A DNA stretch of 64,000 nucleotides from a virus: the UHGV virus genome UHGV-0038496. One strand, written 5' to 3'. Positions 10,058-37,477 of this stretch are shown piece after piece (positions within the stretch are counted from its first letter, which is position 1; every line of letters starts with the position of its first letter). The notes beneath the pieces were generated by a model. The model ran no database searches. It saw only the letters and a list, made by a program, of their open reading frames with translations, and was not told where the DNA came from. The position numbers were made by a program, and so were the translations under genes.

Positions 10058-11341
10058 TTAGAAGAAGATCTCTTCTATTACGTTGCCATCACGGTCAACT
10101 ACATACTCATTCGGCATATCTTCCGTGCGTTTAACAGGAGCCGTGAGTATTTCGAAGCGGCAGCAACGGCATTTAGCAAAGTCGTAGTCATACGGCACAC
10201 TAACCACATCTGCTGGGTCAACAGCCACTTTAGTTAACACACCGTATCCTTTGGCATACTCAGCGCTTGCACAGTGCAGGCCGTGAGAGCAAGCCACCTT
10301 TGGGTTATCCTCTACAAAGTTACGAGGCATTGAGATAAAGCAGCCTTCGTATTGTGGGACTTTACCAGAATGGTAGTCTACACAGCTTCCGTCAGCCTTC
10401 TGAGTTACACCACGGAAACATTCTATACGACCATCAGGTAGAATGTCAATATCATTTGCCTGCATAAAGTTGTAGAGCATGTCTACAGACTTAGCAGACG
10501 GGTTACGAAGCAGACGGACCAGGAACTTGATGTAGCGTTCATCCAGAGTGCCTTCTGCCGCATCCTTTTCAATCCGTTTGGCGATAGTGGAAGTCAGGTG
10601 CACACCATAGTAGAAGAGTTCACCATCACGCATTACGAGGTGATTTTCCAGGTACACCACTTCAATACTTTCCTCTTCCTCTTTCTCCGCGTCCTTAATG
10701 AGCTGAATTGCACCATCGAAGTCGTTAGCACCAACTCTTGCAAACACTTCTTTGTAGAGTTCTTCGTTGTCCTCATCAGCTGTTACAGTGTAAGTCTCTT
10801 CACGAGTGATAATCTGGATCATGCTGCCGAAGATAACCACGACAGGTTCACCATCTGGCACTTTTGGCACCAGGTCATCAGCATTGTAAATCGCTTCATC
10901 ACTGGATGGTTCAACCTCTAAAGGTGAGGCATCACCGTAGTAAGTCGCTGCGTGTTCTGCTGGGGTGTAAACAAGGTTTTTAGGACTTGCATTTTCCCAG
11001 TGCAATACCCCTACTACATTGCCAGGGTATTTTACCACCCAACGCGGAACAGTCGCATAAGGGCCACGGTCGATGAGTGTGGAACCTTCCATGCAGTTTT
11101 CTTTGAACTTACGAGCCTCTCCACGAGAAGCAAACTCTGCATAGTAGTATTCCACTTCCAAAAATTCATTATCAATGTCGCAATTTTTCGGGGAATGTAC
11201 GTCTATCCACCATTCGCCATCGAGAAGATACGGTTTACCCACAGGAAAGCCACGGCTTTCATATTTTGCTTTTGCTACACGAGCATCGTTACGAGTTTTG
11301 TAAGTACGCACGTATACAGCTACGGTTGAACAGTCTGACAT
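10058..11341 (-). CDS. rIIB-like protein (tentative)
   Basis: 427-aa ORF immediately downstream of, and start/stop-overlapping with, the rIIA-like gene; assignment is by position only. Confidence 0.35.
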   Translation of the reverse strand: MSDCSTVAVYVRTYKTRNDARVAKAKYESRGFPVGKPYLLDGEWWIDVHSPKNCDIDNEFLEVEYYYAEFASRGEARKFKENCMEGSTLIDRGPYATVPRWVVKYPGNVVGVLHWENASPKNLVYTPAEHAATYYGDASPLEVEPSSDEAIYNADDLVPKVPDGEPVVVIFGSMIQIITREETYTVTADEDNEELYKEVFARVGANDFDGAIQLIKDAEKEEEESIEVVYLENHLVMRDGELFYYGVHLTSTIAKRIEKDAAEGTLDERYIKFLVRLLRNPSAKSVDMLYNFMQANDIDILPDGRIECFRGVTQKADGSCVDYHSGKVPQYEGCFISMPRNFVEDNPKVACSHGLHCASAEYAKGYGVLTKVAVDPADVVSVPYDYDFAKCRCCRFEILTAPVKRTEDMPNEYVVDRDGNVIEEIFF

Positions 11342-13353
11342 TATTCAGTCTCCTTCTTAGCTTTCATTAATTCAATATATTCAACAACTTCTGGTTTATC
11401 CCAGTAATCCCCCTGGATGCGTTTCAGCAACGGGTAGCGTTTGTATACACCATCCATGTAGCGACGAGCACATTTCACATGAAGGTTCACAAGATGATCT
11501 GCTCTGTCAGCCAGATCCCTATACTTCCACGAGTAGCATCCCATCCACATACGGACCTTATACTTGTTTTCTTTTACTTCTGGGTCAATGCACATTTTCA
11601 CACCGAGTTTTCCCAGTTGCATTTTATATTTTGTGTAACCTGTTGTGTTTGCAGCTTTCATCAAAAGCCAGTTCCAGGCATCCTGTTCCAGAACAGGTTT
11701 TGCATCAACCTCTGTGATAATTCTACAATCTTCTGTCACCCATGTCAAGCGACTTTCAGCAACCATGTAAACATCTTCATCCTGTGGGATACCAAAGGCT
11801 TCACGGAAGACCACCGGATCCTGTTGGTAGATGTTATTGTTTTCACCCAACCAACTGCGGCCTCTCTGGATATCACCATCATACGGGATGCAGTATTTTA
11901 TATCTTTAAAATCCTGCTTACTGATGCGTTCGCGGCAGAACCAACCGTGTTCATCCATCTTTTTGACATAATAGCCCGGTTGATACGTGCTCGCCTGGCA
12001 TTGGTCTTTTGGTGGCTTAGGTAGCTCAGACAGTAGATACAGCACGTCACTGTAGAACGGATCGTTCACATATTTAGCCAGCTCCTCTGACAGGTACGGG
12101 TCTTCCACATAGTAGACGTTGCGGCCTGTCTCATTAGCCAGATAGTTACATTTAATCCGGTTGAACTTACCGTTTGCGTCATTCAGTACCAGCTTACGGC
12201 CTGCTGAAAACTCTGAAGGGCCGTACATATCTCGTTTCAGAGAGTTAGCACCAATCCGAGTACCACCTACGAACACAGGCAACTCATTGATGACTGGGAC
12301 AGTACGACCTTGCATAATGGCTTTCCATTTAGCAGTCATGAACTTCCAGCCCACCAGACGCGAGAAGAAACCACCAGACTCTTTAATGATACGACGGGCT
12401 TCAACCCCAGAAGTGGCCTTATTCAGCAGCACTTCAATCTCTTCACCACGTTTACTGATACCTTCATCCACAAAGGCTTTCAGCTGTTCGAGGAACCCAC
12501 CATCATCATCACCCTCAATCGTCCATTCACGGCCAAGGTTGATATCGCAATCGCCAATCGGAATCTCTACCACCAGGCGCGGATAATCTACCAGAGATTC
12601 AAGATACTCTGAACGATAAGGTTGGTGACCCATCACAACACGGCTTTCCATAGAGCAAGTATTGCCGTGGTAGATGTACAGAGTCCATCCACCTTTTTTG
12701 TATGTGTAGTCAACGTTGCTTCTAAATTGCTCCAGCATCCGTGTGGTGATCGGATCCGACACCTCGAACGGAAACTTAGCATAGTTCAGGCATGAAGCTA
12801 TCGCATGGCGATACGCAGACACATCCCTTTTGCTCACAGGGAACCGGATTGTGATGCCGTTATGCTGCGTAGAAGGCTCGCTACGCGTCTTAGTGACTTT
12901 CGGTATACCTTTGTCCATAAAGACAAGATATTCGCTTCTTGTGCCGTTATAGACGCTTATAACGTTAAAGGCTTCTACCTTGCTCAGAGGTGCTTTTGAG
13001 CCAATGCCTTTGGCACCTACCAGCTCATTACTCTGGCGCTTAGTGGAGTCGCCCAACGTCATAAAAATTGTGCGTACAGTCTCTTCAGACATGCCGAGGC
13101 CTTCATCCTGCACAGAGAAGTAAGGCTCAAGGTCGGTTGGTGTATGGATCTTGATAGGCACATCTTTACGACCTGCTTCAACATGAGCATCCACAGCATT
13201 GAAGATAGGCTCACGACAGGAAGCGAGTAAAGGATCTTTGTAAATACCTTTGATAATCAGGCCAAACGTCTCCGCATTCAGCGCGATTGTCCCTGTGGTA
13301 ACTTCACTCTTACCGAGAATGTTTGCTTCTTTATGGTCACTTTTAATAATCAT
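11341..13353 (-). CDS. rIIA-like protein with N-terminal GHKL-type ATPase fold
   Basis: N-terminal MIIKSD..., then GHKL boxes NAVDAH, DEGLGM, GAKGIGSKA; 670 aa, similar in size to T4 rIIA (about 725 aa, from memory). Confidence 0.55.
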   Translation of the reverse strand: MIIKSDHKEANILGKSEVTTGTIALNAETFGLIIKGIYKDPLLASCREPIFNAVDAHVEAGRKDVPIKIHTPTDLEPYFSVQDEGLGMSEETVRTIFMTLGDSTKRQSNELVGAKGIGSKAPLSKVEAFNVISVYNGTRSEYLVFMDKGIPKVTKTRSEPSTQHNGITIRFPVSKRDVSAYRHAIASCLNYAKFPFEVSDPITTRMLEQFRSNVDYTYKKGGWTLYIYHGNTCSMESRVVMGHQPYRSEYLESLVDYPRLVVEIPIGDCDINLGREWTIEGDDDGGFLEQLKAFVDEGISKRGEEIEVLLNKATSGVEARRIIKESGGFFSRLVGWKFMTAKWKAIMQGRTVPVINELPVFVGGTRIGANSLKRDMYGPSEFSAGRKLVLNDANGKFNRIKCNYLANETGRNVYYVEDPYLSEELAKYVNDPFYSDVLYLLSELPKPPKDQCQASTYQPGYYVKKMDEHGWFCRERISKQDFKDIKYCIPYDGDIQRGRSWLGENNNIYQQDPVVFREAFGIPQDEDVYMVAESRLTWVTEDCRIITEVDAKPVLEQDAWNWLLMKAANTTGYTKYKMQLGKLGVKMCIDPEVKENKYKVRMWMGCYSWKYRDLADRADHLVNLHVKCARRYMDGVYKRYPLLKRIQGDYWDKPEVVEYIELMKAKKETE

Positions 13354-24327: not shown

Positions 24328-27300
24328 TTACGCTTCCTTGAAGTTAAATCCCGCACGACAAGCTGTCTGAGAGATTCCTTGTACAGAAACAGAAAGCGAT
24401 ATGTAGGTTTTACCGTTTTCCATATCGTTCCAGTTGAGTTCATAACCGCACCAACCAGATTCACTCAGTGCAACCGTAGGAGAAGAATAACCGAATTTGG
24501 CTAATCTTGACGGGTCGCCTGTGTAAATCGTTAGCTGGCCTGACGGTACACCTTTAAGTTCTGGGATATACATACCACCAAAAACTCTCATCGGGTAACT
24601 TACCAGTGTCTGGTAGCTACACGGTTGAGCAGAGAATGTCTCCATATTGCTTGTACCGTAAGGTTGCGGATAAGCCCCGTCAGTCGGGTTACCTACCCAC
24701 GCCCTGTATTGCGGGTGAATCTCTTTAACCGTAATCGTGGTCGTCTTCGTGAAGACTGTTCCGTTAGTATCAGTACAGGAGTATGTGATAACAGCTGTAC
24801 CTACACCCACGAATTTAACCTGACCTGTATCAGTGGTGATCGTGACGGCATCCGGGTTATTCGTTGACCAGGACTCTGAAGCAGCAACTGCGCCATCAGG
24901 TTGCATAGTCGGTTTACGCATAACACCGCTACCACCTTTGATACCAATTCCGTTGAACGGGTTAGGCAGATCGCTCAAGCCTGTAATAACAGTACCGGAA
25001 CCACATTTCCAGTTATAGAGTTTACTAAAGGTATATGAACCTTCGCCGTAAGAAACTTTAGCTGTAATTGTGATAACCGCTGAACCGTTTTTCAGAGCGT
25101 TGATAGCGAATTTACGGTCAGTGAGTTTGGTAGCAACAAAGACTGTTGGATCACTTGAAGTAACCTCAAAGCTCAGACTTGCTGCACCACCAGGTAAGAA
25201 GTTGTCCGTAACGTAGAAGCCTGACTGCGTACCTGACTGGCTATAAGGATAAGTACCACGTTCCTGATAGGCATTCGTTGGAGAATAGAAGCCTTTCAGC
25301 AAGAACTCATAGGTCACGCTTGAACCAGCGGCCCATGTGTGGTTATTGTTCATTAAAGCCCAGCTGTCAGAGTTACTGAATCCATAAATGGAGACACTAC
25401 CTGATTTCGCAGTTACCCTCGGAGATATTTCCAAAGCACCTTTGGTGTAAGGGCCTGCCATATTATCTCTTAAAGTACTGGTTTCATCAGAAGCCTCAAC
25501 CATGGCGGTAAGTTTTGTACCAGCGGATTCTTTACCTGTTTCATCCGTCCAGCGAATTTCAACTGGAACACACCATGCACCAAGTTCAGCGTTCCCGTTA
25601 GGTATTGTACCATCAGTTGGAGTATGGTAAGTGTATGCAAGATCTTTTCTTACCACGAACTCAGCGAGGTTGCTGTAAGCAGAGTTTGCAGCAATTATTG
25701 CACCGTCCAGAGCTTTTTGCGGGTAAATCAGTATATATTCATCCGCAATCCAACTGGTGTTGGGCATACCCCACCATTTCTTATCGCTGTCTGGAGACAG
25801 TTCGCATCCTGTTCTAACATCCATATACTGAATCCGTTTCGTATATTCGATATTAGAATAAGTTTGTGCAACTCTAGGACCCAAAGCCCCCGAAGTTTTG
25901 TCATAAACCATCATAGATAGTGTGACAGGATCCGGGCGTGATATACCGAAGCATTCTACCAGTTTTTCTTTCGGTAATGCACAACAGTTGTCATTAGACG
26001 CATTGGTTGTGGTGTAAACCAATTTGTTATTACTGTCCCATACCTGCAACTGAATGTTGCCAGGTGTCCAGCTTGTGTACTTGGACATGTCGTCGAAGTA
26101 CAGGAACAAATCCCCATCTGCGTTCGTATTTGCATACGTGTTAGCTGAGGTTTTATTCCAACATGGTAAGGTGAACCAACGAGGAATCTGTTTCTGAATA
26201 AGATTACCGCCTATTGCCTGACAAATTTCTCTAGAGAGAACTTCACGGGCAAGAGGTTTGTAACCCCATTCGATCATTGACCCATTGTAACCTTCCACTT
26301 TGTAGGCATCTGAACCTTCCTGGAACAGGATACGAGTCACAGCTGAGTTATAAGAGTTTACAGGTTTAACTGCAAACTGAGAGTAAACCCTCATCCTCAT
26401 ATTCTGCCATTCTCTACCACCGATCTCCCATTGGTTGTCATAGCAACGCATCAGAGAGGTCCAGCAGATCGGAGCCATACGCAAGCCATCGCCGAATCCT
26501 TTTGTCTGGTCATTGAATATTTTCCAGAGGAAAATGTTTACTGACCACATGGCTCTGTGGAAGTTGAACCAGTTGACAGAACGAGCAGCGTTTTGAAGAG
26601 AAGTACCATCAAGATTAGGCCACACAGCATTAACCAGCATATCTTCTGTACCTGCATCCAGAACTACCCCTCTGATTCTCGGAACACGATTTGCACGGTC
26701 TGCTTCGCACCAATTCTTGATTAGCTGGAGTTGTCTACCATAAACCTCGGACTGATCGGTTTTCTCCAACATCACCTGTTTAACATGAACAATAGGATCA
26801 CCATAGTTACCGTTAATAGCCTCTGGTAGCATAGTCTGACCAAAGTCAAAACGGATACCACTCAAAGTGTTTCCACTGTCGGTTGCCCAATCAGCTACGG
26901 AGCTGAAGTCAAACTCAAACAGCCACCAGCCTGCACCTAACAGAATACGTCTGCATTTTGAGGTGTCTGTGCTGGTGATTTTCCGAACTTCCCTATACCC
27001 CTCGCTATTAATATTATAATAGCAATCAATGATGTAAGGTGATGTACCTGAAGCATTACCTGTAGGCACATTTTTACCGATCTGATCACAACTAACAACC
27101 AGTTTTACTTGCTGGAATCCTGAGGACATTGGTACTGACATAGCGGTAGCAGCCAGATCACCACGCGGATCGTGAACTTTCTCAATACAGATGAAACCAT
27201 CCAGAACACTTGAACCAGATGGTGTTACATTCTGCGGAATAAAGTTGCAGGTCTGGTTCATTTGAGTCCATGAACCTATCTCTTTATCCATCAGGTTGCA

Positions 27301-30159
27301 ACGGGCATCGCTGTAAAGCTCACCAGGCCCCCAGTAATACTGAGCATAGCAGTTAAAGAACCATCTTGTTCCATCATATTTGTTTTTATCCACCTGGACT
27401 TCGTTGGCCTGTTTCAGCAAGAATGTATGAGTCTCCGTGAAGATAGCAGGCAGTGTCTGGCATTGGCGAGGCACATAGCCTTGTCCGTTGTTGAACCATT
27501 GGTTACAGCAATAATCACGCAAATAATCGTAACTGCAATATTTGCTGTTAGCATCTTCACTATCGAACAGCGCCAGGTTAGTACCACCAGCACACATGAT
27601 ATATTCATTAACAAATTTATCACTGCGTACAGTTTTTGAATCGACTGTGAACCATTTGGCTTCTGGATCTGTATCCTTAACACGGGTATCTTTAATACAG
27701 ACGTAACACAGGTTAGTAACACCCAGTTTTTTCTGCATATCACGTTTCATACCAAGCATGAATTTGGTGGCACTGGCACCAGGTGTAACAGTGTAATACC
27801 AGTCAGCATCGTGTGCACCAACAACACGAGGATCCTCTTTGAACGCAGCAATGCTGTATGCTACGTTGTTAGCAGGATTAGCAGGTGTTACTTTCGCCTG
27901 AATATCCCCATAGCTGTTCTTAACAATCTCTACAGTGATATCCCCACCGCGTGGTGTACGGATAATCTTACGTGAAGTATCGGCAGAACCACCACCCAGG
28001 GTTAACCCGATATTCTGGTGAGTACCGTCATAGTATTCAATCGTTGATTCCCAACGTAAACCGAAGAAACCAGCATCGTAGCTGACGACTTTCAATGTGC
28101 GTGCACCTCCAGCAGGTTTTTGAGGCGTAGGCCACGGGTTAGCATGGTCGTGAACGTTCAGAGAAGTCCCATTCTGTTCATTGACCTGGTACATTTTACC
28201 ACCAGCACCGTTAGGGTTGTATTCCCACAATGCCTGATTAGCACCTATGTATTTGTACATCTCAGGGCGTTGGTCGTAAATTTCCTGAGTCACATCGTAG
28301 GTCACAGAACCTGCATCTTTTCTGTGCAATCTGATTTTGAATGCATCAGCGTTTTCAGTTGCAGGCTGTGCAGTATCCAGACCTAAGTAAGTCGTGCTAC
28401 CCAAAGATAAGGAACGGTTCAAACCTGTAGTGTACCATGCACTATCAGCTGGGATCATAGGTATGATCGTGTTCCAGTTAATGTTTCTGGTAAGATGTGT
28501 GTGAGTACCAGTTTTATCATGATAGGTGATTTTTACATGGTACAGACCACGACGATCAATGTTTTTGTTCTGTTGGGTAATAAGACAATCCCATAAACCG
28601 AATTCCGAATGGTTAGCATAAGCTGTATACAAAGGATCAGAAACAACTGTCTGTGCAGCATTGGTGATCTCAACTTTGTCGATAAACCACGTTGCACCCC
28701 TAGGCAGAGGTTTAACTCTCAGTTGAACTGTATCCCCAACATAGATGTTGTTAACAGGGTGTTCAGACCCCCATCCGTTGACTCTACTAACTTCTTCAAC
28801 CTCAAAACTGGATACCGGAACGTTCTTAATCCAGTTTGGGTCTACCTGTGTGAAACCTTGAGAACTAAGTTGACCACCGAACAGGTTATTGCAGCCTGCG
28901 AAGTTACCACGAGGAACACCAGACCACCAAAGTTTACCGTTCACCACGGTCAGTGTGCCCATGTAACCTTCACGGTTAATACCTTGGAAGTAAACATTCT
29001 CTGCCCAACTGACAGGTGTACGTTGCTCAACATATGCAGCTGTAGCAATCGCCTGTTTGTGTTGGAACTGTGCACGGGGGTTGGCTTCAGCAGAAGACCA
29101 GCCAACATCGTTACACAGGTTACGAGAGAAGCCTCTGTACTGTTTTGAACCATTATTGAAGAAGATACCATTGGTAGCGTGACCTCTTGCAATAATCACT
29201 TCGTGAGTGTAGGTAATGTTCAATGAACGCCAGGTTTTATCTCCCCAGGAATTCTGTCCATAAAATACGTATACAGGTAAGCCAGAACCGTCTGTGTGAA
29301 TACGTTCTGTAGCAACTATGGCCCCATTCGGACCACACATAAACCATTTGTAGGTTTCACTATTACCAAGCAGATTTGCCCATGTACCGTGCTCTGGTGG
29401 ATAAACCAGGGTAAGCTGACTGTTATTACGCAAGAAATCGTAACCAGCAACCCAATAGCCGTCTGGGCCACCATAGATCACAGAGTTATCATGAACTTCC
29501 AGATTCAATGCAGGGTTTTTCCACTGGCCTGTTACAGGATCCTGAGAAGTTTCGGCAATTTTAACAGGGTTAGCATGTTGGTTTTTATCCACATGCAAAG
29601 AACCGTAGGTGTTATTACCTGAACCATAGATATCCCAGATACCTTCACCTTCAGGTGCACCAATCACCCAGCAAGTGTTGTTCATACCGCCACAGACTTC
29701 GATTAGGCGCTCAGGATGCGTATCAAGCCCCAGAGTGGTCGTAATTTGTGAAGGTAATGCAGTCCACTTAGTTACACAAACATCGTTACCACCAGCCGCT
29801 GTGGAGCCGATAAGACCAGCTGTACAACCGATGTAAAAGAATTTATGATCGAAACTTTCAATCACAAAAGAACGGTCTGCTCTCCAGACATGGTTGATGT
29901 TACGGATCGACTCGTTCGGATAAATACATTCATTGCGGTTGCCTGTTCCGCATTCGCCATATTTGTTAGCGCCTGTCAGAACCAGTAAACCATCCGCATA
30001 AAGAATTGCCAGACTATTTACATATGCTACTGAGTTGCTTGTGCCATCACTTTTATCTATTGGATAGGACAGAACAGCAAGTTCCTTGATCCCATCCTTC
30101 GAGTCCAGATGGAAATTAGCAAGTTTTAACAGAGGAATTGGAAACATTGTGTTCTCCAT
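24328..30159 (-). CDS. very large tail fibre / adhesin-like structural protein (1943 aa)
   Basis: N-terminal region with RCC1-like repeats (LVLTGANKYGECGTG, YGSGNNTYGSL); C-terminal Ig-like segments (AVITITAKVSYGEG..., VTITTDTGQVKFVGVGTAVITYS...); RBS GGAGAA. Confidence 0.6.
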   Translation of the reverse strand: MENTMFPIPLLKLANFHLDSKDGIKELAVLSYPIDKSDGTSNSVAYVNSLAILYADGLLVLTGANKYGECGTGNRNECIYPNESIRNINHVWRADRSFVIESFDHKFFYIGCTAGLIGSTAAGGNDVCVTKWTALPSQITTTLGLDTHPERLIEVCGGMNNTCWVIGAPEGEGIWDIYGSGNNTYGSLHVDKNQHANPVKIAETSQDPVTGQWKNPALNLEVHDNSVIYGGPDGYWVAGYDFLRNNSQLTLVYPPEHGTWANLLGNSETYKWFMCGPNGAIVATERIHTDGSGLPVYVFYGQNSWGDKTWRSLNITYTHEVIIARGHATNGIFFNNGSKQYRGFSRNLCNDVGWSSAEANPRAQFQHKQAIATAAYVEQRTPVSWAENVYFQGINREGYMGTLTVVNGKLWWSGVPRGNFAGCNNLFGGQLSSQGFTQVDPNWIKNVPVSSFEVEEVSRVNGWGSEHPVNNIYVGDTVQLRVKPLPRGATWFIDKVEITNAAQTVVSDPLYTAYANHSEFGLWDCLITQQNKNIDRRGLYHVKITYHDKTGTHTHLTRNINWNTIIPMIPADSAWYTTGLNRSLSLGSTTYLGLDTAQPATENADAFKIRLHRKDAGSVTYDVTQEIYDQRPEMYKYIGANQALWEYNPNGAGGKMYQVNEQNGTSLNVHDHANPWPTPQKPAGGARTLKVVSYDAGFFGLRWESTIEYYDGTHQNIGLTLGGGSADTSRKIIRTPRGGDITVEIVKNSYGDIQAKVTPANPANNVAYSIAAFKEDPRVVGAHDADWYYTVTPGASATKFMLGMKRDMQKKLGVTNLCYVCIKDTRVKDTDPEAKWFTVDSKTVRSDKFVNEYIMCAGGTNLALFDSEDANSKYCSYDYLRDYCCNQWFNNGQGYVPRQCQTLPAIFTETHTFLLKQANEVQVDKNKYDGTRWFFNCYAQYYWGPGELYSDARCNLMDKEIGSWTQMNQTCNFIPQNVTPSGSSVLDGFICIEKVHDPRGDLAATAMSVPMSSGFQQVKLVVSCDQIGKNVPTGNASGTSPYIIDCYYNINSEGYREVRKITSTDTSKCRRILLGAGWWLFEFDFSSVADWATDSGNTLSGIRFDFGQTMLPEAINGNYGDPIVHVKQVMLEKTDQSEVYGRQLQLIKNWCEADRANRVPRIRGVVLDAGTEDMLVNAVWPNLDGTSLQNAARSVNWFNFHRAMWSVNIFLWKIFNDQTKGFGDGLRMAPICWTSLMRCYDNQWEIGGREWQNMRMRVYSQFAVKPVNSYNSAVTRILFQEGSDAYKVEGYNGSMIEWGYKPLAREVLSREICQAIGGNLIQKQIPRWFTLPCWNKTSANTYANTNADGDLFLYFDDMSKYTSWTPGNIQLQVWDSNNKLVYTTTNASNDNCCALPKEKLVECFGISRPDPVTLSMMVYDKTSGALGPRVAQTYSNIEYTKRIQYMDVRTGCELSPDSDKKWWGMPNTSWIADEYILIYPQKALDGAIIAANSAYSNLAEFVVRKDLAYTYHTPTDGTIPNGNAELGAWCVPVEIRWTDETGKESAGTKLTAMVEASDETSTLRDNMAGPYTKGALEISPRVTAKSGSVSIYGFSNSDSWALMNNNHTWAAGSSVTYEFLLKGFYSPTNAYQERGTYPYSQSGTQSGFYVTDNFLPGGAASLSFEVTSSDPTVFVATKLTDRKFAINALKNGSAVITITAKVSYGEGSYTFSKLYNWKCGSGTVITGLSDLPNPFNGIGIKGGSGVMRKPTMQPDGAVAASESWSTNNPDAVTITTDTGQVKFVGVGTAVITYSCTDTNGTVFTKTTTITVKEIHPQYRAWVGNPTDGAYPQPYGTSNMETFSAQPCSYQTLVSYPMRVFGGMYIPELKGVPSGQLTIYTGDPSRLAKFGYSSPTVALSESGWCGYELNWNDMENGKTYISLSVSVQGISQTACRAGFNFKEA

Positions 30160-30194: not shown

Positions 30195-31949
30195 TTAACG
30201 TTGTGCAATAATAACGTCCACAATATCACCGAAACCTGGGTAGGTAAGTTGACAAAGTGTTACGCTACTGGCTTTGTTGTTAACTACAGGAGTTGCAGAC
30301 AGGATTGCATACTTATCACTGAATGTGACCTGATGCCCTGTAGCATCCTGACGGAAATAAATTACCACTGAGAACGGGTTAGGTTTATCTTCTTCCGAAG
30401 CTGCTGTAACACCAGGCCACGTTGCTACGTTCAGGTTGCCAGTAACTTCGACAACATACATGCTGGCATTGCCTGATGGGGTCCATGTTCCGGTAGCTCC
30501 AGCGATATCCTCAGATTCGAATTCTAGTTTGGTTGTGCGGATCTTCTCAATTGTGGTGCTACCACCAACGCTAAGGTTACCGTTGATACTAACGTTACCT
30601 GAGGCGTTCATGATCCCGCAGTTGAGAGTTTTACCCGTATAATCCGGCATCCAACCTGTTAATGTACCAGAGATTTGGAGGTTATGGATGTAGGTTGTTC
30701 CTGAACCTGCTGCGTTCAGGCTTACATCCCCATTAACTTGCAAATTGCGATTCACATTGCAATCGGTGAAGTTACCAGTATTGATGGTGGCAGTCGTACC
30801 ATTCAAGGTTGTAATTGCAGCTTTATTTGCAACAATACCGTTACCTTCAAAAGTAGCCTGCTGGTTAGATTTGAATGTGTCAGCAGACAAATCTTTAACC
30901 TTCGCATTACCCTGAATAACCACGGATCCACCAACCTGCAAGTCACCGTTGACACGGGCATCATTGGTTGTTTCCAGGTAGTTCGGGTAAATATCCAAAC
31001 CATCAACAGAGTGAACAATACCTTCAACTTTACCAAGTACTTTCAGGTCTTTGACCTGGGTTACACCGTCAACCGTCAGGGTGGGTTCCTGAACATCTTT
31101 TTGAGAATTACCACGAATATAAACGTAGTCAAAGTAGTTGTTACCACGACCATCAAAGTGAACAGTGTTGTTATCACTTACCGGAGCACCATTGTGGATC
31201 ACATCAGAGGTCAACAGGTGAGTCTCGATGTTGTAAGGATCCAGCATTGTAGAGGTCCAGTTAGTGTGGTTCTTGTCTGTCCAGTTAAAATTAATAGCGG
31301 AATCTCTACCTGTCAAGGTCAGCTCTTTGAAACGCCCAGCAAAGTCAGAAGCATTCAAGGGGCCACGTAAGGTCAAAGTACCGTTAATGACGGTATTGGT
31401 TAATTCTGATAAGCCACGAACAACCAGAGAACCAATTGTGACCTCCATACCAGCCATGGCTTCAAAAATGCTGTCTACATAGTCAACAACAAATGTGGTG
31501 TTGGCAATGGACAGAGATTTATCATTCATCGGCGGTGTCGGAACACGCGGATCACCCTGGAAGAGTGGGCTACTCAGTTTAGCATAAAATTCAGCAAGCA
31601 CGTTGGCATCGGTGTACAATCTCCACGCTGTGGATTTGGACGGATCGGATGGCAAACGTACTGGCGTAGATTTAGATGCTCCAGGAGCATACCACCATGT
31701 GATTTTTCCATCTGCTTTGTATTCGTAAATCTGGTTAAATACTGTGGTGGAAGAACCATATACCCACGGGATTGGTGGAGTTTTAAAATACAGGTTATCA
31801 AGTAATGCTTTGCGGATGGTAGGGATGGTTGTACCATCCTCTACCACAACTTCATCCACAGCAGTACCATTGACAACCAGATGGAGGCGCTCAGAGTCAA
31901 TTATGACCTGATCCACGGCCTCTTCAAAGTTTGTCATGTCTTGAGCCAC
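30195..31949 (-). CDS. tail fibre / tailspike-like protein (584 aa)
   Basis: Repetitive N/T/G/S-rich beta-type sequence; position within the fibre cluster. Confidence 0.45.
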   Translation of the reverse strand: MAQDMTNFEEAVDQVIIDSERLHLVVNGTAVDEVVVEDGTTIPTIRKALLDNLYFKTPPIPWVYGSSTTVFNQIYEYKADGKITWWYAPGASKSTPVRLPSDPSKSTAWRLYTDANVLAEFYAKLSSPLFQGDPRVPTPPMNDKSLSIANTTFVVDYVDSIFEAMAGMEVTIGSLVVRGLSELTNTVINGTLTLRGPLNASDFAGRFKELTLTGRDSAINFNWTDKNHTNWTSTMLDPYNIETHLLTSDVIHNGAPVSDNNTVHFDGRGNNYFDYVYIRGNSQKDVQEPTLTVDGVTQVKDLKVLGKVEGIVHSVDGLDIYPNYLETTNDARVNGDLQVGGSVVIQGNAKVKDLSADTFKSNQQATFEGNGIVANKAAITTLNGTTATINTGNFTDCNVNRNLQVNGDVSLNAAGSGTTYIHNLQISGTLTGWMPDYTGKTLNCGIMNASGNVSINGNLSVGGSTTIEKIRTTKLEFESEDIAGATGTWTPSGNASMYVVEVTGNLNVATWPGVTAASEEDKPNPFSVVIYFRQDATGHQVTFSDKYAILSATPVVNNKASSVTLCQLTYPGFGDIVDVIIAQR

Positions 31950-31958
31950 GTTATCTCC

Positions 31959-32273
31959 TTAAGCCTTCGGTTCTTCGTCTTTTTGATGATCAGGATGTTG
32001 GCATCCCCAACGAAGTGCAATAAACTTACTGATTAATTGTGGGCAAGCAACTGAAGGAGCATAGATCCATGCATACCATTCCGGCAGGGTATCGGTGTAC
32101 CCCATGTGCAGGAAGACGATAGTCATGGCAAGCATACCAATGTTGGACCACAACTTAGCCTGAGATACCTTATTGGGATCGTCCGGTGCTGCGACCAGCA
32201 TCCACAAAAAGGATTTGATTTTCTTGAACATCACCCCTTCTTTACAATGTCTGTACTGTGATCCATTGACCAT
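31959..32273 (-). CDS. hypothetical membrane protein
   Basis: 104-aa ORF with hydrophobic segments (FLWMLVAAP..., MLAMTIVFLHM); true start may be the internal MFKKIK. Confidence 0.4.
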   Translation of the reverse strand: MVNGSQYRHCKEGVMFKKIKSFLWMLVAAPDDPNKVSQAKLWSNIGMLAMTIVFLHMGYTDTLPEWYAWIYAPSVACPQLISKFIALRWGCQHPDHQKDEEPKA

Positions 32274-33306
32274 TTACCAGTTTCTGGAGTGGAGCGGCCC
32301 AATAGCCAGCACCACGCAATTGTTTCTTGTTACCATTCTGCCAACCACGCATTACGTAGCCAGCTCTTACACGGTTATCACCTGTACCGTCTATCAGCAT
32401 ACCTCCACAACGAACATCGGAGATAGCTGGTTGCGGTAGCGCTAATGTTAAGTTGCCGTTACCATCTGCTGTGGCACCGTTTACTGACCTGCAAACATGT
32501 CTTCCACCTACGACGTGATAATTACCACGGGTTGTGTGACTATCGCAGTTAAAACTGTTGGTATGAAGGTTACCACAAGAGGTCTGGCTTGATACAGAAG
32601 CTGTACTCCAGATACTAACAGTGTTACCGTTCATAGAACCAGCACGTAAGTTATCAGCAGCGATAATGTCACCTACTACGGACAATCTACCACGGTTTGG
32701 AGAGATAGCACACAGTTTCATCAGTGTGAACAGGCTACCACCTACAGGGTGGAATCTGTAGCGGAACCCTTCTGTACCTGTGTAGTAGGATGCTTCAAGG
32801 TCTGCTGTACCGTAGTTGTCGGACATACGAAAATCGAAATAGGTTTTATCCCCACCTTTATACCCAGGGGTATCTGCAATCGTGGAACAGTAAATCGCAC
32901 AAGTATCTGTATTGGCAGATGTGAAATTAATCCTTGTAACCCCTAAAGTCATGTTACCTTTCAAGGTATCCCCTGTCAGGTGAACATAACGGTCATCCAT
33001 CTCCGCTATTGTCAGGCAACCAAGATTTTCCCTTGCAGCAGCTTTGTCCGGTATCTCTGCCAGGTTGTTAGCAACTCGTAAAAAACGGTCATCCCACCCT
33101 GGGATGGCCTCTTCGTTCATGTATTTCAGCCAGTTACCAATCATGTTGAACTCAAAATTCATATGCTCAACAGCAATTTTCTGACTGAAGTCCCAACCCG
33201 CTAACCTCCGTTCATCATTGGGCTGGACCTTATTCAATTCTCGTGTGGTGTCAAGCAGTGCATCCTGATATGCCCACACCTCAAGTGGATAAGTCGGTTT
33301 TGGCAT
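32242..33306 (-). CDS. tail fibre protein, paralogue A (354 aa)
   Basis: N-terminus MPKPTYPLEVWA... and C-terminus ...RGAGYWAAPLQKLVNGQWITVQTL nearly identical to the 34345..35385 product; central region divergent. Confidence 0.65.
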   Translation of the reverse strand: MPKPTYPLEVWAYQDALLDTTRELNKVQPNDERRLAGWDFSQKIAVEHMNFEFNMIGNWLKYMNEEAIPGWDDRFLRVANNLAEIPDKAAARENLGCLTIAEMDDRYVHLTGDTLKGNMTLGVTRINFTSANTDTCAIYCSTIADTPGYKGGDKTYFDFRMSDNYGTADLEASYYTGTEGFRYRFHPVGGSLFTLMKLCAISPNRGRLSVVGDIIAADNLRAGSMNGNTVSIWSTASVSSQTSCGNLHTNSFNCDSHTTRGNYHVVGGRHVCRSVNGATADGNGNLTLALPQPAISDVRCGGMLIDGTGDNRVRAGYVMRGWQNGNKKQLRGAGYWAAPLQKLVNGQWITVQTL

Positions 33307-33335
33307 GTTTTCTCCTGACTAAAATTCTTGACATT

Positions 33336-33364
33336 ATTTTAGCACTAAACTCCTCAAAATGCAA
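33336..33364 (-). promoter_or_regulatory. sigma70-like promoter (TTGCAT, 17-nt spacer, TGC-TAAAAT)
   Basis: Read on the minus strand: TTGCAT, 17 nt, TAAAAT preceded by TGC; followed by RBS AGGAGAAAAC and the ATG at 33306. Confidence 0.45.
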
Positions 33365-33386
33365 CCAGAGGCTTCCTTGCCGTTGG

Positions 33387-33701
33387 TTATTTCTCCTTGT
33401 TACTCAGGAGAATCTGGATAATTTGTTGAATGTCGCTCCGCAATCCATTAACGTCACTTTTGACCTCTTTCCTTAACTCGTCAAGGTTATCTTGAATATC
33501 TTTAAGACGCTGGTTCAACACCGCGTCAAGTCTATCTTTTGTAACCATATTGCTTTTCACCAAAATAAGGTCCTTCTCTAAATCATCCAATCTTTTAGAG
33601 ACGGCTTTCCACTTTACGTGCCACTGACCAAAAATCCAGACACCTATCGGGACAATAACGCTCATGATTATCTCAAAAAGCGTACCAAAGTCCAGTTCCA
33701 C
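33387..33701 (-). CDS. hypothetical membrane-anchored coiled-coil protein
   Basis: N-terminal hydrophobic helix IIMSVIVPIGVWIFG then heptad-like charged sequence. Confidence 0.4.
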   Translation of the reverse strand: MELDFGTLFEIIMSVIVPIGVWIFGQWHVKWKAVSKRLDDLEKDLILVKSNMVTKDRLDAVLNQRLKDIQDNLDELRKEVKSDVNGLRSDIQQIIQILLSNKEK

Positions 33702-33710
33702 ATTACCTCC

Positions 33711-34328
33711 TTAGAAGGCTGGGCGATCAGGGATATGTATGTTAGGGGCTTTGTTTATATCAATCTCCAGTAGGTGAATCCTGTAAAGTTTCAGTTCCTT
33801 AACAAACTGCTCCTGTTCAGGAGATAGTATATAATCCAAGTCCAGCATGTCGCTGAAAGCTCCAAGCCTTGCTGTAGCCCATTGCAATTCTTCTTCAATG
33901 ATCTGCTGTGCAGCATCGATGTAAGGTTTGTTATCAACAACAAATTTCTCACCATCCCAGCGGTAGGCATTGATCATGTTCTCAATGTCTTCCGGGAACT
34001 CCTCTCGTTTACCGTGCAGGACTTGAAGACCATCACTGGGGAAAATACCTGCGGGATCTGTGGTTACAATTTTCAGTAAACCATCGGATTCTATAACTGC
34101 GAACAGGTATTCTACTCCAGATTCCTGGGCAATTTGCTGTAATTCTCGTGTCTGGGCGTACCAGTCACCGTGCTCATTGCGAAGGAAGTAAGCAGAATAA
34201 CGAGCGTAATCTTCAATCTCCTGCTCTGTTAATTCCAAGGTTTGTGGCTGATCTTCATCGAGAGCCAACACCATCGGGCGAGGCTCTTGCGGATCATACA
34301 GCTCAAAACCTGTAGCCATTTTGATCAT
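33711..34328 (-). CDS. putative tail fibre assembly / chaperone protein
   Basis: 205-aa acidic protein immediately downstream of a fibre gene; assignment by position and composition only. Confidence 0.3.
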   Translation of the reverse strand: MIKMATGFELYDPQEPRPMVLALDEDQPQTLELTEQEIEDYARYSAYFLRNEHGDWYAQTRELQQIAQESGVEYLFAVIESDGLLKIVTTDPAGIFPSDGLQVLHGKREEFPEDIENMINAYRWDGEKFVVDNKPYIDAAQQIIEEELQWATARLGAFSDMLDLDYILSPEQEQFVKELKLYRIHLLEIDINKAPNIHIPDRPAF

Positions 34329-34344
34329 AATATGTAACCCTCAA

Positions 34345-35385
34345 TTATAGTGTCTGAACGGTAATCCACTGTCCGTTAACAAGTTTCTGTAGCGGAGCTG
34401 CCCAGTAACCTGCACCACGGAGTTCTTTTTTGTTACCGTTAGCCCATCCTCTCATAACATAACCCGGACGTACCCTATTATTAGAAACCCCATCGATCAA
34501 CATACCGCCGCAGCGAATATCCTGAACGCCTGAAGCTGGGATACTGATAGTCAAGTTACCATTACCATCCGCGTTCACACCGTTGACTGAACGAACTACA
34601 TGGCGACCACCAACCACACAATACTGGCTACGGACTGTCATGTTATCGACGTTGGAACCACCGTTAGCATAGAAGCTACCTGTGGTCAACTGGCTCGATA
34701 CGCTGACGTTACCGAAGGAAGCTGTACCAGTAATGGTGACTGTGTTGGAACGCACGTTGTCCTGTGCTTCAATGTTACCAATGACTTTGAGAAGTGCACG
34801 GTTAACAGAGATAGCATTCAGATGCATCAGTGTAAACTCTGGGTTGATATCCGGTTGTGTAGGTTGGAATCTCCAACGGAAAGCATCAACTATGGAAGTA
34901 CCACCATCGTCGAATGAACCAACGTTATCCATCAAGCAGAAGTCTAACAAGGTTTTATCTGGACTGATTGTGGTTTCTATCCACGCCGCATCTGTTTCCG
35001 CTGCCGCAAAGTTAATGCGTTGCAATCCCAGAGGACCTGTCATTGTGTCACCAGTGATCTTGACGTAACGTGCGTCAGTCTCAGCTTTAGTAACAATGCC
35101 GAGGTTTTTACGGGCAATCTCTACATTCAAAAGATCGCTCAAGTTGTTGTCCTTAATAAGATAACGTCCTTCCATAGACGGGATCTGATCTTCGGAAATG
35201 TATTTGGCCCAGGTAGCCAGCATGTTGATGAGGTAGTTCAACTCTTCACATGATGGTTTCTGCCCTTTATCCCAACCTTTTCTCCAGAGATCGTCAATAG
35301 GACGCATCTTATTCTGTTTATGGGAGTTGGGGAGGATTTGATCCTCCGCAGCCCATATCTCTAAAGGAAAACTAGGTTTAGCCAT
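34345..35385 (-). CDS. tail fibre protein, paralogue B (346 aa)
   Basis: Shares N-terminal (MAKPSFPLEIWA...) and C-terminal (...RGAGYWAAPLQKLVNGQWITVQTL) blocks with the 32242..33306 product. Confidence 0.65.
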   Translation of the reverse strand: MAKPSFPLEIWAAEDQILPNSHKQNKMRPIDDLWRKGWDKGQKPSCEELNYLINMLATWAKYISEDQIPSMEGRYLIKDNNLSDLLNVEIARKNLGIVTKAETDARYVKITGDTMTGPLGLQRINFAAAETDAAWIETTISPDKTLLDFCLMDNVGSFDDGGTSIVDAFRWRFQPTQPDINPEFTLMHLNAISVNRALLKVIGNIEAQDNVRSNTVTITGTASFGNVSVSSQLTTGSFYANGGSNVDNMTVRSQYCVVGGRHVVRSVNGVNADGNGNLTISIPASGVQDIRCGGMLIDGVSNNRVRPGYVMRGWANGNKKELRGAGYWAAPLQKLVNGQWITVQTL

Positions 35386-35398
35386 TTATTTCTCCTGA

Positions 35399-37477
35399 TT
35401 ATGAAAGGTCTGGTGGTGTCACATCTTCTGTGTAGCTTTTAAGGGCTGTCTGCCCCATGTGAACAACAGTTGACTCTTTCGCACTGAATGTGATACTATC
35501 ATTCATAAGTTGAGGATAAGCCCATACGTACTGCTGTACTTCTGGGTAATGATACTCAGTGGTGCAGATATTACCACAGATCATTCTCCACAAAAATTCC
35601 TGATAGTTCTTCTCTGGGTCATAGCCATACACCGGAGCTAAATCTTTACCTGGTACAAACCCTGCGAGGTAGTGGATTTCGTTCCTGTTCCACCCCAAGG
35701 TTTTACGAGGATGTTCGATAGCTTCGAATGAACGTTCTATTTTCCCATTCATAACCCAATCATAGCATTCTGAACAGAAGAAGTCAAGTACTCCTGACTC
35801 TTTCTTGTACTCATCCGGCAGGTTAAGTTTTTCCATCACTGTACCAACAATGGTGGGATAGAAAACAAGGACTGTAACCTGAGCGCCAGGGAATGCTGCT
35901 TTAATTCCGGCAGAGATTGTTGCAATTCTCTGACCGAATTTTTTACGACAGAATGCGATGTACCTGTCATAAACACCACCAGTTAATGGTTTGTCAATGG
36001 TGCCCATGTCAAGTGCATACTCTCCTGTTTCCCTGTAGAACAGCTCTTTTGTGGTGTAGTCGTAAATACAAGGCTTGCGAGAGTCTGTATTGTACCACCA
36101 CCACGGTTCGCCAATCTGCATAATAACAGGAAGGTTTTTACTTTTCAAGATCTGAGCGAAGTTTTTAAAGACGCTCAGCAGGAATGTCATACCCCCTTCG
36201 ATACAAGGCGATAACAGGTAGCTGCAAGGTGTATACCCTGTCTTAGCGTAGCTATCGTCCCATTCGCGTTGAGTCCATTCCAGAGGACAGGCATCACTAT
36301 AAAGCTCCATGCTGACAGAGAACATTGCATCAGTGAATCCGTAACGAGTCAAATTGTAAGCAAAGTCATCATGCCATGCTTTGGCAGCTTTGTTCAGAGT
36401 ACCTGATCTGTCGATTTCCCATTTGTGAGTTGAGCTTCCCCATGAGTAATTATAATAGTGACTCATACCGCAATAGTGGTTGATTCTACCACGGTAGCCA
36501 AGTTTCTGGAGGTTGTAAAGAACACGCGCTGGGGAAACATTCCACATATCATCGTATGCAGTGCAAGCCCTTAAATCGTGACCTTCTACAGTCAGATCAT
36601 TAAGCTGCATGTATTTCCAGCCAGTGTCCGGCTCCAGCATATCAATGCGAAGTTCACAGTCAACATTAGTTGTGCGAACGTCTGTGCTGTTGGCAACATA
36701 ATCCTTAGGCATTAACGGGATCAGGATCTTGCGAACCTGACGAGGGTCAACTGCCACCAAGTAATTATTTTTGTCAACACCCAGACAATCCTCAAAATTG
36801 AGGTGAATATCTGCTGTGGTTTTATCAGCAGAAATGTTAGAAGCATAGTCCGACATACGGACGTAAACTATTGTACCATCAACAAGAGTGATAGTAATTG
36901 TGGCCTGACCTGGGGTTGTAAAGTCAAGAGCGTTGGTGAACTTGACCCTGAACCACAGCTTGGTATTACGCATCTCATAATGATCATCATATCCTACACC
37001 AAAATGGTCGTATGTGTCAACTGTTTCCCAGATTGCTCCAGACATACCCCCCATCGTACGTGAAGTCATTGTGACAATCACTGTGGAGTTGTCTGACTTG
37101 ATCGATGTACTCTCAGTCGGCTGGCAATTTGTTACCCAGTAGCGTGGGTGGAACATTCGTTCTTCTCGTGTTCCCCATTCAAGTCTGCTCAAATCTTCTC
37201 GTGAAATGATCGTGCATTTTGCTTGTTTGGTCCCAATTACCGTCCCCTGTGAGGGGGTATGGAACTGCATATAGAAGCTACGAGGCAGTCTGTTAGGTTT
37301 TTTATCCACAATATTAACAGGGATATCCACAAAAGCAGAATCCACTGGGATGATCGCCTTGCCTTCGACGTGAGTGTAATCACGCCCAGGCACAGCGGTA
37401 TCTGCCAGGGTGTTATACATAAATTCTGCCTGGAGTGTGGTGTAATCCCTGTAAGTTCTGAATACAGCGGTTGCCAT
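35399..37477 (-). CDS. large tail-associated protein (692 aa), possibly enzymatic
   Basis: Location between baseplate and fibre genes; Trp/Tyr-rich central region (GEPWWWY); no family assigned. Confidence 0.4.
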   Translation of the reverse strand: MATAVFRTYRDYTTLQAEFMYNTLADTAVPGRDYTHVEGKAIIPVDSAFVDIPVNIVDKKPNRLPRSFYMQFHTPSQGTVIGTKQAKCTIISREDLSRLEWGTREERMFHPRYWVTNCQPTESTSIKSDNSTVIVTMTSRTMGGMSGAIWETVDTYDHFGVGYDDHYEMRNTKLWFRVKFTNALDFTTPGQATITITLVDGTIVYVRMSDYASNISADKTTADIHLNFEDCLGVDKNNYLVAVDPRQVRKILIPLMPKDYVANSTDVRTTNVDCELRIDMLEPDTGWKYMQLNDLTVEGHDLRACTAYDDMWNVSPARVLYNLQKLGYRGRINHYCGMSHYYNYSWGSSTHKWEIDRSGTLNKAAKAWHDDFAYNLTRYGFTDAMFSVSMELYSDACPLEWTQREWDDSYAKTGYTPCSYLLSPCIEGGMTFLLSVFKNFAQILKSKNLPVIMQIGEPWWWYNTDSRKPCIYDYTTKELFYRETGEYALDMGTIDKPLTGGVYDRYIAFCRKKFGQRIATISAGIKAAFPGAQVTVLVFYPTIVGTVMEKLNLPDEYKKESGVLDFFCSECYDWVMNGKIERSFEAIEHPRKTLGWNRNEIHYLAGFVPGKDLAPVYGYDPEKNYQEFLWRMICGNICTTEYHYPEVQQYVWAYPQLMNDSITFSAKESTVVHMGQTALKSYTEDVTPPDLS

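Follow-up and report, generated by a model that had tools for sequence, protein, structure and literature searches.

Several described systems resemble the locus analysed here. In phage rV5, gp30 and gp33 are proteins of similar size that are 42.3% identical and T4 gp12-like by HHpred; both of these proteins and gp32 were detected in the virion by proteomics, and recognition of two lipopolysaccharide (LPS) chemotypes was proposed for the phage (PMC3606486, Kropinski 2013). Vequintavirinae sensu stricto carry two short tail fibres that are paralogues of each other, together with a chaperone (PMC8594841, Maffei 2021, S5D Fig); phi92-like phages have a single homologous locus, and the homology extends in the end to GpS/GpU of Mu (PMC8594841). 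With RBPseg, the short tail fibre, which has a Mu-like C-terminus, was fitted into cryo-electron microscopy maps of two Vequintavirinae (PMC12143355). The cassette as such is already described. We analysed a version of it in a 64,000-nucleotide stretch of the virus genome UHGV-0038496 (the window), in which two fibre genes, here called A and B, lie on either side of a chaperone gene. The best explanation of this locus, in our view a probable one, is that it is the short-tail-fibre cassette of an rV5-type (Vequintavirinae) myovirus in which gene conversion replaced the tip of B with that of A. What the analysis shows is homology, synteny, incongruent phylogenies, a breakpoint and, in related genomes, conversion tracts.

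The genes and domains on which the argument turns are the following.

34345..35385, minus strand: short tail fibre paralogue A, an open reading frame (ORF) of 346 amino acids, orthologue of rV5 gp33
35101..35385, minus strand: predicted N-terminal baseplate-joint domain of A, residues 1-95, A-type, by phiTE homology
34348..34626, minus strand: C-terminal tip block of A, residues 254-346, Mu GpS-like by profile search and Foldseek
33711..34328, minus strand: tail fibre assembly chaperone, 205 amino acids, rV5 gp32 orthologue, Mu GpU-type by Pfam and PHROG
32242..33306, minus strand: short tail fibre paralogue B, probably chimeric, an ORF of 354 amino acids, positional orthologue of rV5 gp30
33022..33306, minus strand: predicted N-terminal baseplate-joint domain of B, residues 1-95, B-type, by phiTE homology and tree
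32245..32523, minus strand: C-terminal tip block of B, residues ~262-354, of probable A-type origin (converted tract) by breakpoint and tree

A and B are paralogues whose similarity is concentrated at the C-terminus. The two proteins were 51% identical (BLASTP, E=8e-121), and the "tail fiber protein" family phrog_4465 matched both over their full length (residues 1-345 of 346 in A, E=1.1e-149; residues 1-353 of 354 in B, E=2.5e-114); a Pfam scan of the two proteins gave no match. An earlier sequence-only reading of this DNA had called the minus-strand frames of 354 and 346 amino acids at 32242..33306 and 34345..35385 tail-fibre paralogues, and these results agree with it. That reading had also described the first 100 or so residues as near-identical, which they are not: amino acid identity was 40% over the first 100 residues, the same as in the centre (about 42%), and rose to 80% over the last 90 and 97% over the last 30. 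The final 25 residues, LRGAGYWAAPLQKLVNGQWITVQTL, are the same in both, so that the likeness described for the last 90 or so residues was real, as was a mosaic rather than uniform divergence in the regional comparison. The underlying DNA is only partly similar, again as claimed: the C-block was 66% identical in nucleotides and 36% at third codon positions, and no exact run reached 12 nucleotides. Four insertions or deletions, 14 residues in total, separate A from B, including an 8-residue insertion in the centre of B. The pattern is one of two blocks, diverged from residue 1 to 260 and conserved from about residue 260 to the end.

The layout of the locus is that of rV5, and the tips of its fibres are not. 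Likenesses to rV5 gp33/gp32/gp31/gp30 include the gene order, the fibre sizes (346/347 amino acids in rV5 and 346/354 here), the PHROG family, the chaperone, the small gp31-like and gp29-like genes, and a promoter motif 5' of the second fibre gene. In contrast, the rV5 tips differ from each other (46% identity in the C-block) and those here are 79-85% identical; B is 45% identical to gp30 overall, with a tip of apparent A-type origin; and the window locus has no megablast match. Identities were compared over an N-terminal region (residues 1-95), a middle region (96-255) and a C-terminal region (256-346).

A versus rV5 gp33: N-terminal 77%, middle 76%, C-terminal 67% (74% overall)
B versus rV5 gp30: N-terminal 58%, middle 41%, C-terminal 41% (45% overall)
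B versus rV5 gp33: N-terminal 42%, middle 40%, C-terminal 56%
B versus A: N-terminal 40%, middle 42%, C-terminal 79%
rV5 gp33 versus rV5 gp30: N-terminal 39%, middle 44%, C-terminal 46%

The two blocks of B gave different trees. We compared the window with rV5 (L001) and with four relatives, metagenomic genomes that have the same locus (L003, L004, L005 and L006), using neighbour-joining (NJ) trees with 300 bootstraps. For residues 1-255, all A proteins formed one clade and all B proteins, including rV5 gp30, another, each with 100% support. The central region alone gave the same two groups (96% for B and 100% for A). For residues 256-346, the A and B proteins of the lineage fell into a single clade (98%) that was nested with rV5 gp33 (97%), and support for a clade of all B proteins was 0%. 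A maximum-chi-square test placed a breakpoint at B residues 261-265 (p<0.0005), with 28 A-like and 47 B-like informative sites to its left and 34 and 1, respectively, to its right. Over the last ~55 residues, A resembled B more closely than it did the A orthologue (18 informative sites versus 3), indicating that A and B have derived states in common there. The same B chimera was present in all four relatives. From the trees and the breakpoint, we conclude that B is a chimera, with a gp30-type anchor and shaft and a gp33-type tip.

Exact matches between A and B within the relatives show fresh gene conversion. A 110-nucleotide exact A/B tract was found in L004 (permutation p<0.0002), a 30-nucleotide tract in L005 (p=0.0004), and a patchwork of tracts of 23, 19 and 14 nucleotides in L003. 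Among B-type proteins of the lineage, 5 of 17 had A-type patches at a few diagnostic tip positions, and A-type tips were essentially uniform in all 15 sampled. Patched B tips together with uniform A tips argue for repeated conversion, mostly from A to B. The literature that we searched held no mention of tip homogenisation by gene conversion in this lineage.

The type phage itself has a similar feature. The genes for rV5 gp33 and gp30 (L001 9001-10041 versus 11056-12099) have a 30-nucleotide exact tract at the codons for QKLVNGQWIT (p=0.004), and the proteins are ~42% identical outside it, which points to small conversion tracts in the type phage as well.

The conversion that produced the window's B tip appears to be old. 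Between A and B of the window, the rate of nonsynonymous substitution (dN) was 0.19 in the tip block versus about 0.55 elsewhere in the gene, and synonymous sites were saturated; values of the proportion of synonymous differences (pS) above 0.75 by the NG86 method arise artificially from two-fold degenerate sites. Saturation of the synonymous sites in the tip indicates that the event is old and that protein identity has since been held by purifying selection. The ratio of nonsynonymous to synonymous rates (dN/dS) among orthologues was 0.01-0.25; in the centre, it was 0.12-0.25 for B versus 0.01-0.14 for A. Codons of the window's tips matched 27 times, versus 32.9 expected from codon usage (z=-1.5). 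This difference is not significant and leaves unsupported the idea that selection has driven synonymous sites of the tips apart to avoid recombination between repeats. We also rejected the idea that B is a decaying redundant copy: its ORF is intact in five genomes, with dN/dS of 0.02-0.25.

Identical residues in the centre (32521..33021 versus 34630..35100) used the same codon 38 times versus 27.1 expected (z=+2.9). Possible causes of this contrast with the tip are short conversion tracts of old date in the shaft and constraint at the nucleotide level.

We propose the following history. The duplication into A and B would be older than the split of this lineage from rV5, since in N-terminus and shaft the A and B proteins form two old orthologous classes. 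Later, within this lineage, intragenomic gene conversion would have written the A tip over that of B, the breakpoint lying near residue 262 of B. Strong purifying selection and repeated conversion, mostly A-to-B, would since have maintained the likeness of the tips.

Several observations weigh against this history. Its polarity depends on a small set of taxa and on NJ trees built from 90 residues, and outgroup tips are about equally far from all four tips (37-46%). The window's own A/B pair lacks an exact run of 12 nucleotides or more, so the event is read from the protein phylogeny and from the relatives, and in the window's tips same-amino-acid codons are identical in only 27 of 73 cases. 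The structural model used below is a low-confidence monomer (pLDDT 58.8). In addition, rV5 has one chaperone and two different tips, so that sharing a chaperone does not by itself force tips to be identical. Some of these observations would suit a history with no conversion, in which the tips were alike in the common ancestor and evolved slowly here while in the rV5 lineage the gp30 tip changed quickly or was exchanged for another. The full saturation of synonymous sites in the window's tips, the rough equidistance of the outgroup tips and the very strong purifying selection on the tip are all compatible with it. However, this history expects the B tip to branch outside the A-type clade, and it nests within that clade with rV5 gp33 as sister (97%); the last ~55 residues of A are nearer to B than to the A orthologue by 18 sites to 3; and conversion tracts were observed directly at the same site in L004, L005, L003 and rV5. 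Nor did the 50,697 phage records contain a foreign donor above 44% for the rV5 gp30 tip; with its nearest non-Vequintavirus match at 44%, we rejected a foreign origin for that tip. We consider the history with no conversion improbable.

Two further explanations assign other roles to the conserved blocks. The sequence-only reading had both ends conserved for attachment and trimerisation and an exchanged specificity cassette in the centre. It was right that the pair is mosaic, and the centre does contain insertions and deletions (including the 8-residue insertion in B) and evolves somewhat faster in B than in A (dN/dS 0.12-0.25 versus 0.01-0.14). However, the N-termini, at 40% identity, are no more conserved than the centre and fall into two old classes rather than forming a preserved attachment element. 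The centre, like the N-terminus, tracks the orthologue tree, with the A and B clades each at 96-100%, and is therefore vertically inherited rather than swapped; it is under purifying selection; and the module with the incongruent history is the C-terminal block of ~90 residues. We regard an exchanged central cassette as very unlikely. Formation of A and B heterotrimers through the identical C-terminal nucleation region, giving one composite fibre, might account for the identical last 25 residues and the shared chaperone, and would suit the start of Mu-type folding at the C-terminus with Tfa (PMC9608196). Yet a common trimeric register seems unlikely for shafts and N-termini of ~40% identity with four insertions or deletions (14 residues), the rV5 tips differ (46%) although both proteins are in the virion, and B has a promoter-like site of its own. 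In our judgement, composite fibres of this kind are scarcely credible. Overwriting of the B tip by the A tip remains the explanation that we prefer.

The C-terminal block of both fibres resembles the tip of the Mu tail fibre, and the N-terminal block resembles the joint of the phiTE short tail fibre. A profile built from 32 homologues was searched against PDB sequences. It matched the phiTE short tail fibre (9CUY) at its N-terminus (positions 1-88, E=7e-26) and its C-terminus (E=5.7e-7), and the Mu tail fibre S (5YVQ) both in full (E=1.3e-12) and at residues 149-256 (E=0.003), as well as a Mu S/S' chimera (8JU3, 8ju3_A; E=6.9e-5). Within Mu S, the stretch aligned with profile positions 286-352 was residues 436-503 (E=3.7e-6); in the phiTE short tail fibre, it was residues 479-553. 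There was also a match to Pakpunavirus P7-1 gp92, through the repeated collar motif NLADVxxKAAARxNLG. Taken singly, residues 1-91 of A matched residues 1-91 of the phiTE fibre (E=3.4e-19), and B matched its residues 1-83 (E=9e-7). The profile hidden Markov model search of the PDB, a profile-to-sequence search below the level of an HHpred comparison, returned no T4 gp12 chain up to E=10. An AlphaFold2 monomer of A was of low confidence (predicted local distance difference test, pLDDT, 58.8; predicted template modelling score, pTM, 0.30) and was used only for a Foldseek match; the sole significant match was 5yvq_A from the Mu fibre-chaperone complex (E=2.4e-5).

From these matches, we infer a three-part fibre. 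In the published phiTE model, residues 3-92 of the short tail fibre make up a trimeric joint bound to baseplate wedge 1 (PMC11972413), and by analogy the first ~90 residues of A and B would anchor the fibre in the wedge as such a joint. The shaft would span residues ~95-255, and the last ~90 residues would be a distal, chaperone-dependent tip. PMC9608196, citing North 2019, describes Mu Tfa as binding the distal fibre, driving its trimerisation and staying on the virion, and describes Mu-type folding as starting at the C-terminus with Tfa. The tip would determine what is bound on the cell surface, as the corresponding part sets host specificity in Mu. The sequence-only reading had taken the conserved C-terminus for a trimerisation element. 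Conservation of the block stands, and its homology to Mu GpS suggests that it is a chaperone-bound distal tip and not merely a trimerisation element.

Neither Mu nor phiTE has this arrangement as a whole. Like Mu GpS/GpU (5YVQ, 8JU3), the window fibres have a homologous tip domain and part of the shaft, with a Tfa-family gene directly 3' of A. Unlike in Mu, their N-terminus is a phiTE-type wedge joint, and the window has no invertible G segment or S'/U' pair; it has two same-strand fibre genes in direct repeat and a single Tfa. Tips on invertible segments are a Mu-specific feature and are not required of the wider fibre family. The short tail fibre of the Pectobacterium phage phiTE (Certrevirus, Vequintavirinae, 9CUY) has in common with A and B the N-terminal ~90 residues and the C-terminal motif IQKxVNGxW. 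It differs in being a single flagellotropic fibre of 554 amino acids with a coiled coil and immunoglobulin-like (Ig-like) domains, where the window has two paralogues of ~350 amino acids. Mosaic tail fibres made by recombination between homologous fibre genes are classical for P2, Mu, P1 and the T-even phages. The window resembles those cases in the exchange of a C-terminal module at a conserved junction. It differs in that donor and recipient are paralogues of the same genome and in that the process appears to recur and to make the copies alike (concerted evolution) rather than to diversify them.

Parts of the fibre also occur in other proteins. A 532-amino acid protein (P0053) with an unrelated fibre body has only its C-terminal 112 residues in common with these fibres (49% identity), and two others (P0052 and P0054) have only the N-terminal part in common and carry other C-termini. 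The window contains no third copy of the N- or C-terminal block.

The two fibres may depend on one chaperone. An assembly-factor gene had been predicted between the fibre genes, and the product of 33711..34328 is indeed of that family (PF02413 Caudo_TAP, 28.7 bits versus a cut-off of 22.1; phrog_136, E=6e-20); against PDB sequences it gave only noise (E about 0.1). The chaperone gene begins 17 nucleotides past the stop codon of A. The gene 3' of B encodes a small membrane protein and not a Tfa, and B must therefore use the chaperone of A or need none. The chaperone is far less conserved than the fibre, 45% identical to rV5 gp32 versus 74% for A and gp33, a divergence that fits co-evolution with the tip.

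The window is best assigned to an uncultivated, diverged lineage of Vequintavirinae type, which may be an undescribed genus. A megablast search of 31900-35500 against 50,697 phage records gave no match, because the lineage is too diverged, and protein searches were therefore needed. By tblastn, the fibre was found in 432 records, at two places in each Vequintavirus genome. The neighbouring 24 kb of structural genes had ~75% nucleotide identity to rV5-like phages over at most 11% of their length. Identical fibre proteins were present on ~140-kb metagenomic contigs (NCBI, Logan, ENA), and clusters at 90% identity had 159 and 172 members.

About 21 records labelled 'Campylobacter phage' (MG0656xx, 128-143 kb, host C. 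jejuni) also carry rV5-type short tail fibres, at the same level of identity as those in E. coli Vequintaviruses. These records appear to carry wrong host or organism labels.

The remaining features of the locus are the following.

33387..33701, minus strand: small conserved protein, 104 amino acids, GTG start, rV5 gp31 orthologue (phrog_5345, E=1.7e-34)
33362..33389, minus strand: weak hairpin 3' of the gp31-like gene, its 3' arm overlapping the -35 element, by fold energy
33335..33364, minus strand: promoter-like element for B, TTGCAT, 17 nucleotides and TGCTAAAATA (extended -10), by alignment with relatives
31959..32231, minus strand: small membrane protein 3' of B, rV5 gp29 orthologue (phrog_1322, E=5.8e-30, and synteny)

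The gene order is identical to that of rV5 from gp35 through gp27. In rV5, this order runs from the baseplate protein gp35 and the TIM-barrel protein gp34 through the fibre gp33 (346 amino acids), the Tfa gp32, gp31 and the fibre gp30 (347 amino acids) to the membrane protein gp29, gp28 and gp27. The series gp34-like TIM-barrel, fibre, Tfa, gp31, fibre, gp29, gp28 is kept in the window, rV5 and the four relatives.

B plausibly has its own promoter, as the sequence-only reading had noted for one of the paralogues. The 80-nucleotide gap 5' of the 354-amino acid gene (33307-33386) holds TTGCAT, 17 nucleotides and TGCTAAAATA, and a gap alignment showed this element to be retained in the four relatives and in rV5 (TGTTAAAATA) amid a spacer that is otherwise diverged. 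A generic sigma-70 scan flagged no promoter in the gap. The extended -10 sequence TGnTAwAATA occurs six times in the window versus 1.9 expected (62842, 56978, 39709, 33344 and 11037 on the minus strand; 59122 on the plus strand), and it matches the rV5 late-gene motif TggTAaAAtA (PMC3606486). Probably these sites are the structural-operon promoters of the phage, the counterpart of the 'late' motif in rV5. The T4-late motif TATAAATA had no match in the window. The hairpin at 33362..33389 (-10.5 kcal/mol, z=-0.9) is not significant alone; the one at the same position in rV5 had -18.2 kcal/mol (z=-4.0).

A TTGACA-like hexamer lies ~17 nucleotides 5' of four of the five copies of TGnTAwAATA on the gene strand, the copy at 11037 being the one that lacks it.

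The small genes and the flanking structural genes have features of their own. The gp31-like protein is 51% identical to rV5 gp31 and 88-96% identical to its counterparts in the relatives. On inspection, its sequence has a hydrophobic N-terminus followed by a charged, heptad-like stretch, and its gene lies invariably between the chaperone and the second fibre. The gp29-like ORF as listed (31959..32273) overlaps the last 32 nucleotides of the B gene; the phrog_1322 match begins at residue 18 of this ORF, which makes the internal ATG at 32231 (90 amino acids) the likelier start. Orthologues in the relatives are longer (117-126 amino acids). The 692-amino acid protein encoded 5' of A (35399..37477, minus strand) matched the Pfam 'non-contractile tail sheath protein' TIM-barrel (E=1e-76) and N-terminal domain (E=5e-15), although the phage tail is contractile; rV5 gp34 is annotated as a baseplate protein with exopolysaccharide (EPS) depolymerase activity. 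At the position of rV5 gp27, the window encodes a giant Ig-like fibre protein of 1943 amino acids (24328..30159, minus strand) that is highly variable among close relatives: it has 838 amino acids in L003 (9237-11753) and at least 1566 in L006, and is absent in L004, which has small minus-strand genes in its place. This variability agrees with PMC8594841, in which the large lateral fibre genes were described as allelically variable.

Baseplate sites, chaperone sharing and receptor identity are inferred, and we picture the function of the two fibres as follows. Each fibre would trimerise from its C-terminus, helped by Tfa. The N-terminal joints would plug into the baseplate wedge and, at 40% identity, probably use sites that differ or cannot be interchanged. 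The tip, perhaps with Tfa still bound, would contact the LPS core, given the analogy with Mu and the dependence of LL12 and of the BASEL Vequintavirinae on the LPS outer core. With the same chaperone and the same tip, both fibres probably have the same receptor specificity, and the lineage would then probably present one specificity at two differently anchored positions, where rV5 may present two.

It is possible, and we put this forward only tentatively, that in this abundant lineage the tips undergo concerted evolution, in which recurrent, mostly A-to-B, conversion and purifying selection keep the tips of differently anchored fibres identical so that they fit one fast-evolving chaperone and one receptor. 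If this is true, the phage would present a single specificity at two baseplate positions, a matter of avidity and not of breadth and the reverse of the 'two LPS chemotypes' proposed for rV5. As a weaker addition to this idea, the genes between the direct repeats might be protected in part from loss by recombination because synonymous sites in the identical tips are fully scrambled.

In a myovirus, adsorption becomes irreversible through the short tail fibres, and a map of anchor, shaft and tip guides host-range engineering of rV5-type phages, which are popular candidates for therapy and biocontrol. The B gene would be a natural tip swap, a gp30-type body with a gp33-type tip joined at VVGGRHV (residue ~262), and this junction may be a workable splice point for chimeric fibres. 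Conversion-driven homogenisation of the tips in this lineage is a modest addition to a known cassette, useful mainly for that splice point. Because paralogous fibre genes of the same genome can homogenise each other, counts of fibre genes can overestimate the number of receptor specificities.

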